The notes under the pieces: generated by a model
What the model was told of the DNA's origin: nothing
Databases searched by the model: none
Seen by the model: the letters and a program-made list of their open reading frames with translations, nothing else
Made by a program: the position numbers and the translations under genes
Sequence record: AF419419.1
Length of the DNA: 285 nucleotides
Strand: one strand, 5' to 3'
Origin: a phage
Shown: positions 1-285 of the stretch, piece after piece
Layout: each line of letters opens with the position of its first letter
Position numbering within the stretch: position 1 is the first letter of the stretch

Positions 1-285
1 ATGGCTATGTCTAACATGACTTACAACAACGTTTTCGACCACGCTTACGAAATGCTGAAAGAAAACATCCGTTATGATAACATCCGTGACACTGATGACC
101 TGCACGATGCTATTCACATGGCTGCCGATAATGCAGTTCCGCACTACTACGCTGACATCTTTAGCGTAATGGCAAGTGAGGGCATTGATCTTGAGTTCGA
201 AGACTCTGGTCTGATGTCTGACACCAAGGACGTAATCCGCATCCTGCAAGTGCGTATCTATGAGCAATTAACGATTGATCTCTGG
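1..285 (+). CDS. ocr: Ocr anti-restriction protein (T7 gene 0.3 product; DNA mimic that inhibits type I restriction-modification enzymes); 3'-partial, first 95 codons, CDS continues beyond the window
   Basis: Seen in sequence: ATG at 1-3 and an uninterrupted frame-1 ORF to position 285; frame 2 stops at 17-19 (TGA) and frame 3 at 11-13 (TAA); the minus strand is interrupted by multiple stops. The translation matches the N-terminal ~95 residues of T7 Ocr as I recall them ([25 protein letters not shown]...IDLW). Composition is strongly acidic (13 Asp + 6 Glu versus 2 Lys + 4 Arg in 95 residues), as expected for a DNA-phosphate mimic. Codon usage (CGT, CTG, GAC, AAC) fits a highly expressed early coliphage gene. 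No alignment was run. Confidence 0.95.

Follow-up and report, generated by a model that had tools for sequence, protein, structure and literature searches.

Ocr, a DNA-mimic anti-restriction protein, is among the best-characterised phage anti-defence proteins. The contribution of its acidic residues has been examined in the T7 protein (gp0.3; UniProt OCR_BPT7; PDB 1S7Z; Pfam family PF08684) by mutagenesis. Neutralisation of the acids in mature segments 12-26, 25-35 or 92-99 leaves wild-type activity (Roberts et al. 2012, PMC3439906), a result that includes the mutants Mut1 and Mut2, both of which carry D26N. The most mutation-sensitive part of Ocr for EcoKI inhibition is Loop 2, mature residues 59-73. 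In Mut12 and Mut3, in which this segment is neutralised, the Kd for M.EcoKI is 20-80 nM and the inhibition of modification is abolished, yet even with five to six of the Loop 2 acidic residues replaced the protein continues to block restriction in vivo. Addition of D73C to an already weakened mutant noticeably worsened it further, and this aspartate directly follows the mature Pro72 (PMC3439906).

Related work has described the surroundings of this segment and the contacts made by the protein. The acidic residues of the central Loop 2 are particularly important for the interaction with EcoKI (Kanwar et al. 2016, PMC4872106), and Glu88 of helix D is able to form hydrogen bonds with the Loop 2 main-chain amides (PMC4872106). 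Of the BREX complexes, the crystal structure of PglX-Ocr shows salt bridges involving R79, D35, D42, D62, D76 and E109, and BrxX-Ocr shows a salt bridge through E67 (PMC11842806); the proline at residue 73 (mature 72) is not among the contacts named in the interface descriptions consulted. F54 has a role in dimerisation, and a single change at this residue, F54V, escapes the PARIS system and still blocks EcoKI (PMC9122126).

Two numbering conventions run through these reports. In the present study, residue 73 is counted with Met1, and the same proline is Pro72 of the mature protein, which is without Met1. The Dryden-lab papers number mature Ocr (PMC3439906), so that P73 corresponds to their Pro72, D27N to their D26N and Asp74 to their D73, and mapping codon 73 onto these papers requires an offset of one. 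The F54V numbering of the PARIS paper counts Met1 (PMC9122126), and the E67 of the BrxX paper is consistent with the same convention (PMC11842806).

Identity of the Window and Its Departures from T7

The window, that is, the whole stretch of 285 nucleotides analysed here, was compared with 50,697 phage records by megablast, which returned 176 matches. The best of these were more than 40 phage T7 records, each 98.2% identical to the window at full length, in which the matched stretch is annotated as "gene 0.3, inhibits EcoB and EcoK host restriction". Against the annotated gene 0.3 of V01146.1 (positions 925-1209), the window is identical at 280 of 285 bases without a gap. Frame 1 of the plus strand begins with ATG and is open over all 285 bases, with no stop by codon 95; the reading frame continues past the window end, beyond which T7 ocr has 22 further codons and a stop (117 codons in total). 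The translated product matches the Pfam family PF08684, "DNA mimic ocr", with 192.2 bits (cut-off 25; E=2.3e-57) over profile positions 1-93 of 101, and the PDB Ocr chains (1s7z, 2y7c and others) with E=5e-58; PF08684 is present in all 140 homologs found. From the DNA identity together with the Pfam and PDB matches, it follows that the window corresponds to codons 1-95 of T7 ocr (window 1..285, plus strand). At the DNA level T7 is its nearest neighbour, the next-closest cleanly aligned relative being identical at 262 of 285 bases. Judged by these alignments, the window is T7 itself with five private changes and not a related species.

The five changes are listed in Table 1. Across these 285 bases, where the window diverges by 1.75%, there is no difference among the more than 40 independent T7 records, and since all of them differ equally from the window, P73S is a true departure from T7. 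The initial annotation had given proline (CCT) for T7 residue 73 and had implied a one-base transition at position 217; alignment with V01146.1 bears out both, the reference residue being proline and not serine. Proline is also found at position 73 of the PDB Ocr chains (1s7z, 2y7c and others). That the substitution is one of five G:C-to-A:T transitions relative to T7 was, as such, no part of the earlier finding. At the protein level, 92 of 95 amino acids are identical to T7 over codons 1-95.

Table 1. Base differences between the window and T7 (ungapped comparison with V01146.1), the GATC sites they create and the loop that holds residue 73
Feature	Window position	Strand	T7 position	Base change	Codon	Effect or remark
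Difference	79	+	1003	G>A	27 (79..81), GAC>AAC	D27N
Difference	189	+	1113	C>T	63, GAC>GAT	silent
Difference	217	+	1141	C>T	73 (217..219), CCT>TCT	P73S
Difference	251	+	1175	C>T	84 (250..252), GCG>GTG	A84V, in helix D
Difference	279	+	1203	C>T	93, GAC>GAT	silent
New GATC	187..190	+				from silent C189T, inside octamer ATTGACCT at 184-191
New GATC	277..280	+				from silent C279T, inside second ATTGACCT copy at 274-281
Loop 2, acidic connector of helices C and D	181..231	+			61-77	DSSP on AlphaFold2 models; holds P73S

Structural Setting of Residue 73

The position of residue 73 was examined in two AlphaFold2 models. For the window protein with Ser73 (47-sequence alignment; pLDDT 81), DSSP assigns helices at 8-26, 31-45, 50-60 and 78-94, and for a full-length homolog with Pro73 (P0001; 96% identical; pLDDT 87), at 8-25, 31-45, 50-57 and 78-120. 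Both models put residue 73 in the connector of helices C and D, five residues ahead of the start of helix D, so the earlier placement of the proline between structural elements is upheld. A start of helix D at about residue 73, as considered for the crystal structure, is not borne out by DSSP on the models, which gives residue 78. Confidence in both models is lowest in the Loop 2 connector (pLDDT about 66-79), and their helix layout is the same with serine or proline at position 73, a similarity that has to be read with the insensitivity of AlphaFold2 to single substitutions in mind. In Foldseek comparisons of the Ser73 model with 1s7z, 9ex7, 7eew, 8q56, 8v45 and 6r9b, TM scores of 0.66-0.75 were obtained with a probability of 1.00. 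The window protein is thus predicted to have the 1S7Z-like helical fold, with helices A-D and Loops 1 and 2.

In structural terms, P73S would replace the Loop 2 proline beside Asp74, in a connector that mimics DNA phosphate positions, and would lift a backbone constraint just upstream of Asp74-Thr75-Lys76-Asp77, which lead into helix D. Serine at this position would leave the fold and the charge pattern intact.

Likely Effect of the Serine Substitution

Natural variation was counted over 120 cluster representatives of Ocr homologs. Column 73 contains proline in 111 of these, serine in four, glutamine and aspartate in two each and glutamate in one; serine is therefore the commonest alternative to proline, and its carriers are 57-91% identical to the window protein. 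The predominance of proline implies, from sequence conservation, some constraint at the position. The counts at the two other substituted columns are as follows: D in 95, A in 12, E in four and N in three, among others, at column 27, and A in 114, V in four, M in one and S in one at column 84. All 14 invariant and all 19 near-invariant alignment columns retain the family residue in the window protein. The dimer-interface residues F54 and A58 (codon numbering) are present, as are all six of the Loop 2 acidic residues. The 95 residues comprise 19 Asp and Glu versus six Lys and Arg, compared with 20 versus six in T7, D27 being the sole acidic residue lost.

Because serine occurs naturally at the position and every invariant and near-invariant residue is intact, P73S is probably near-neutral, and near-neutrality is the most likely outcome in the light of natural variation and the published mutants. 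The suggestion that loss of the proline would be consequential finds no support here, serine being the commonest natural alternative and Mut12 and Mut3 still blocking restriction in vivo. Given the sensitivity of Loop 2, the substitution may nevertheless cause a small shift in affinity, or shift the balance between blocking restriction and blocking modification. From natural variation and the published mutant data, we infer that the window protein would inhibit Type I restriction-modification, and BREX through BrxX/PglX, by competitive binding; the variant would still form a working Ocr dimer and act by DNA mimicry against Type I restriction-modification enzymes and BREX methyltransferases. 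P73S is an unremarkable point change in a protein that has been studied in great detail.

Comparison with Natural and Engineered Variants

Over codons 1-95, to which the comparison with T7 Ocr extends (the C-terminal 22 codons lie beyond the window), the two share the start codon and the predicted four-helix layout with Loop 2, and the window differs in D27N, P73S, A84V and the two silent changes that create GATC sites. The natural homologs with Ser73, namely the protein of Proteus phage 309 (P0093), those of T7-like metagenomic contigs (P0014 and P0008) and P0110, have the same Loop 2 motif as the window, G-L-M/I-S-D/E-T-K-D-V, but carry many other changes, and none combines S73 with V84. The "DNA mimic protein" of Proteus phage 309 (OL416096.1, a complete 41.7-kb genome with the Ocr homolog at L029 1501-1845) has N27 and S73 together, with the same TCT codon, on a 67%-identical background. 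In P0014 the local sequence GLMSDTKDV is the same as in the window, whereas its serine codon is TCG and that of the window TCT. The ocr gene of P0014 lies in a normal T7-like early region and is followed by a gp0.4 homolog. Its TCG stands where T7-like relatives have CCG, which indicates that the same first-position C-to-T change arose independently. In another respect, one T7-like metagenomic contig with a natural S73 ocr (L028) has an HNH_3 (PF13392) endonuclease gene at 156-632, just upstream of ocr, where T7 has early promoters only; this gene is probably a homing endonuclease insertion.

Among engineered variants, the D26N of the Dryden-lab mutants (Mut1, Mut2 and pOcrD12N/D26N) is the D27N of the window, and the Loop 2 segment in which P73S falls (mature residues 59-73) is the one altered in Mut3 and Mut12. 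These mutants differ from the window in having 5-17 designed replacements of Asp or Glu, with the proline unchanged in all of them. The window is without their other substitutions, D13 (their D12), for instance, being intact, and for this reason it is not one of these constructs.

The combination of changes found in the window was then sought in wider collections. None of the 50,697 phage records matched the window exactly (best 98.2%), and no match to its sequence was found in plasmids or complete E. coli genomes. Exact-match patterns across the S73 codon gave no matches in viral, metagenome or GTDB genome contigs. A collection of 15 billion proteins, in which wild-type Ocr occurs on 248 contigs, does not contain the triple-mutant protein with the T7 C-terminus added. 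From IMG/VR, 26 natural Ocr loci were obtained, of which 24 non-T7 loci align cleanly without gaps, and for every one of these the distance to the window exceeds the distance to T7, by 1-5 bases. The window base at 79, 217 or 251 occurs in none of the close relatives among these loci; T at 189 is found in three loci of mixed divergence and T at 279 in six distant loci. A literature search for Ocr P73S/P72S, D27N and A84V/A83V returned nothing relevant.

Mutation Spectrum and Origin of the Changes

All five changes are of the G:C-to-A:T type (on the coding strand, four C>T and one G>A). Such a uniform set has a probability of about 1e-4 under uniform substitution and of about 0.005 under the spectrum observed between T7 and its close relatives, in which 35% of changes are of this type. 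The coding-strand bias itself, C>T in four of five, is not significant (P=0.23). The ratio of nonsynonymous to synonymous changes is 3:2, and 59% nonsynonymous is expected for unselected G:C-to-A:T changes in the segment; natural variable sites are, in contrast, mostly synonymous (64 versus 40 nonsynonymous). The uniform spectrum together with the neutral nonsynonymous ratio leads to the reading that T7 ocr passed through a G:C-to-A:T process without effective selection.

Processes of this kind are known for phage. According to one report (PMC6042481, citing Springman 2010 and Bull 2013), G:C-to-A:T mutations predominate in T7 treated with nitrosoguanidine or hydroxylamine, and heat increases G:C-to-A:T transitions in phage (PMC8923235). 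In the proposed course of events, a G:C-to-A:T-specific mutational process would have acted on T7 or on a cloned ocr gene, with little or no selection on ocr while it lasted. Candidate processes would include chemical mutagenesis of the hydroxylamine, nitrosoguanidine or EMS type, enzymatic or heat-driven deamination of cytosine, and deamination damage carried into the sequence. The sequence contexts of the five sites show no clean fit to any single mutagen or deaminase motif. On inspection, none of the mutagen context motifs considered (5'-RG for alkylators; TC or WRC for deaminases) accounted for all five sites, a comparison that is uninformative at n=5. Heat-adapted T7 lines (MZ3752xx, PMC8923235) were considered as a match and ruled out, their Ocr variant P0122 being F54L. 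As an observation in its own right, the F54L of P0122 (QZB84632.1 and others; laboratory T7 lines, MZ3752xx) affects the dimer-interface residue whose F54V variant escapes PARIS.

Taken as a whole, we consider it rather probable that the window is codons 1-95 of T7 ocr with five private G:C-to-A:T transitions of mutational or damage origin, and with a near-neutral P73S. For the five changes themselves, a mutagenic origin is most likely, as suggested by their spectrum and privacy in a small sample of five. As a clue to where the sequence comes from, the all-G:C-to-A:T set is more informative than P73S alone. For users of the sequence, this means that it is probably mutagenised or damaged T7 DNA, and the three amino-acid changes are consequently to be read as a random sample rather than as adaptations.

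An unlikely alternative is that the differences are non-biological and were introduced either as sequencing or assembly errors from a deaminated template or by in-silico alteration or generation of the sequence. Cytosine deamination in a damaged template classically shows itself in changes of C to T and of G to A, the haplotype is present in none of the public collections searched, and the placement of both silent changes in the same octamer, ATTGACCT, is odd for independent random events. Damage reaching the consensus at five sites would, however, need low coverage, and the reading frame is intact with all invariant residues kept. The window alone contains nothing that distinguishes such an artefact from real mutagenesis.

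It appears improbable that the window stems from a natural T7 isolate or close relative that was never mutagenised, with the five changes as standing polymorphism. Each of the three amino-acid states is natural in Ocr homologs, as the column counts given above indicate (N27 in 3/120, S73 in 4/120 and V84 in 4/120), the T at 189 and the T at 279 are present in some relatives, and C>T is the change seen most often when T7 is compared with its relatives; moreover, five changes are a small sample, in which a chance run of G:C-to-A:T changes retains the probability of about 0.005. That same low value under the natural spectrum speaks against standing polymorphism, as does the nonsynonymous fraction of 3/5, which fits an absence of selection and not the 64 synonymous to 40 nonsynonymous natural sites. 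None of the three amino-acid changes is shared by any close relative on a T7-like backbone, and every cleanly aligned relative is closer to T7 than to the window. A divergence of 1.75% also contrasts with the identity of more than 40 T7 records over the same 285 bases, and the haplotype is missing from every collection searched.

The mutational or damage origin is also to be weighed against selection. P73S and the other missense changes could be adaptive and alter the target range of Ocr through a reshaped Loop 2, with PARIS escape or a better fit to restriction-modification or BREX enzymes as the outcome. EcoKI binding depends on Loop 2 more than on any other segment, neighbouring residues contact partner proteins in complexes (D62, D76 and R79 with PglX; E67 with BrxX), and the F54V precedent illustrates that a single Ocr change can separate functions (PMC9122126). 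Residue 73 (mature 72), by contrast, is not named as a contact in the interface descriptions consulted. The reported PARIS escape alleles (F54V, delT35, delG209, 247C>T and 265C>T; frameshifts and nonsense changes among them) are all missing from the window, in which F54 is kept (PMC9122126). Silent changes make up two of the five, the share of nonsynonymous changes is that expected under neutrality, and the literature searched makes no mention of Ocr P73S/P72S, D27N or A84V/A83V. Adaptive change is thus very improbable, and scarcely to be expected at all is the specific version in which D27N, P73S and A84V together form a selected separation-of-function allele analogous to F54V. If it were true, such an allele may keep inhibition of Type I restriction-modification without triggering Ocr-sensing abortive infection (e.g. 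PARIS) or, alternatively, may have a changed balance between inhibiting restriction and inhibiting modification; an allele that separates Ocr functions would bring a Loop 2 position into the small set of Ocr mutants that are informative.

Recognition Sites Affected by the Changes

The segment contains only two copies of the octamer ATTGACCT, and each of them is hit by a silent change that converts it to ATTGATCT. The resulting GATC motif (Dam/MboI) is absent from the whole 1,485-nt T7 reference locus examined. Calculated post hoc, the probability of two GATC-creating hits is about 0.01, and that of two hits sharing their context over +/-3 bases is about 0.004; the two silent hits in the same octamer may reflect a context hotspot or chance. 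No site for EcoKI, EcoBI, EcoAI, EcoR124I, Dcm, EcoP1, EcoP15 or BREX (GGTAAG, GATCAG) is gained or lost through the five changes. The C251T change, which gives A84V, removes the overlapping HhaI (GCGC) and BstUI (CGCG) sites of T7 at window 250-253, so that among the sites examined the only ones altered are GATC, which is gained, and GCGC/CGCG, which is lost.
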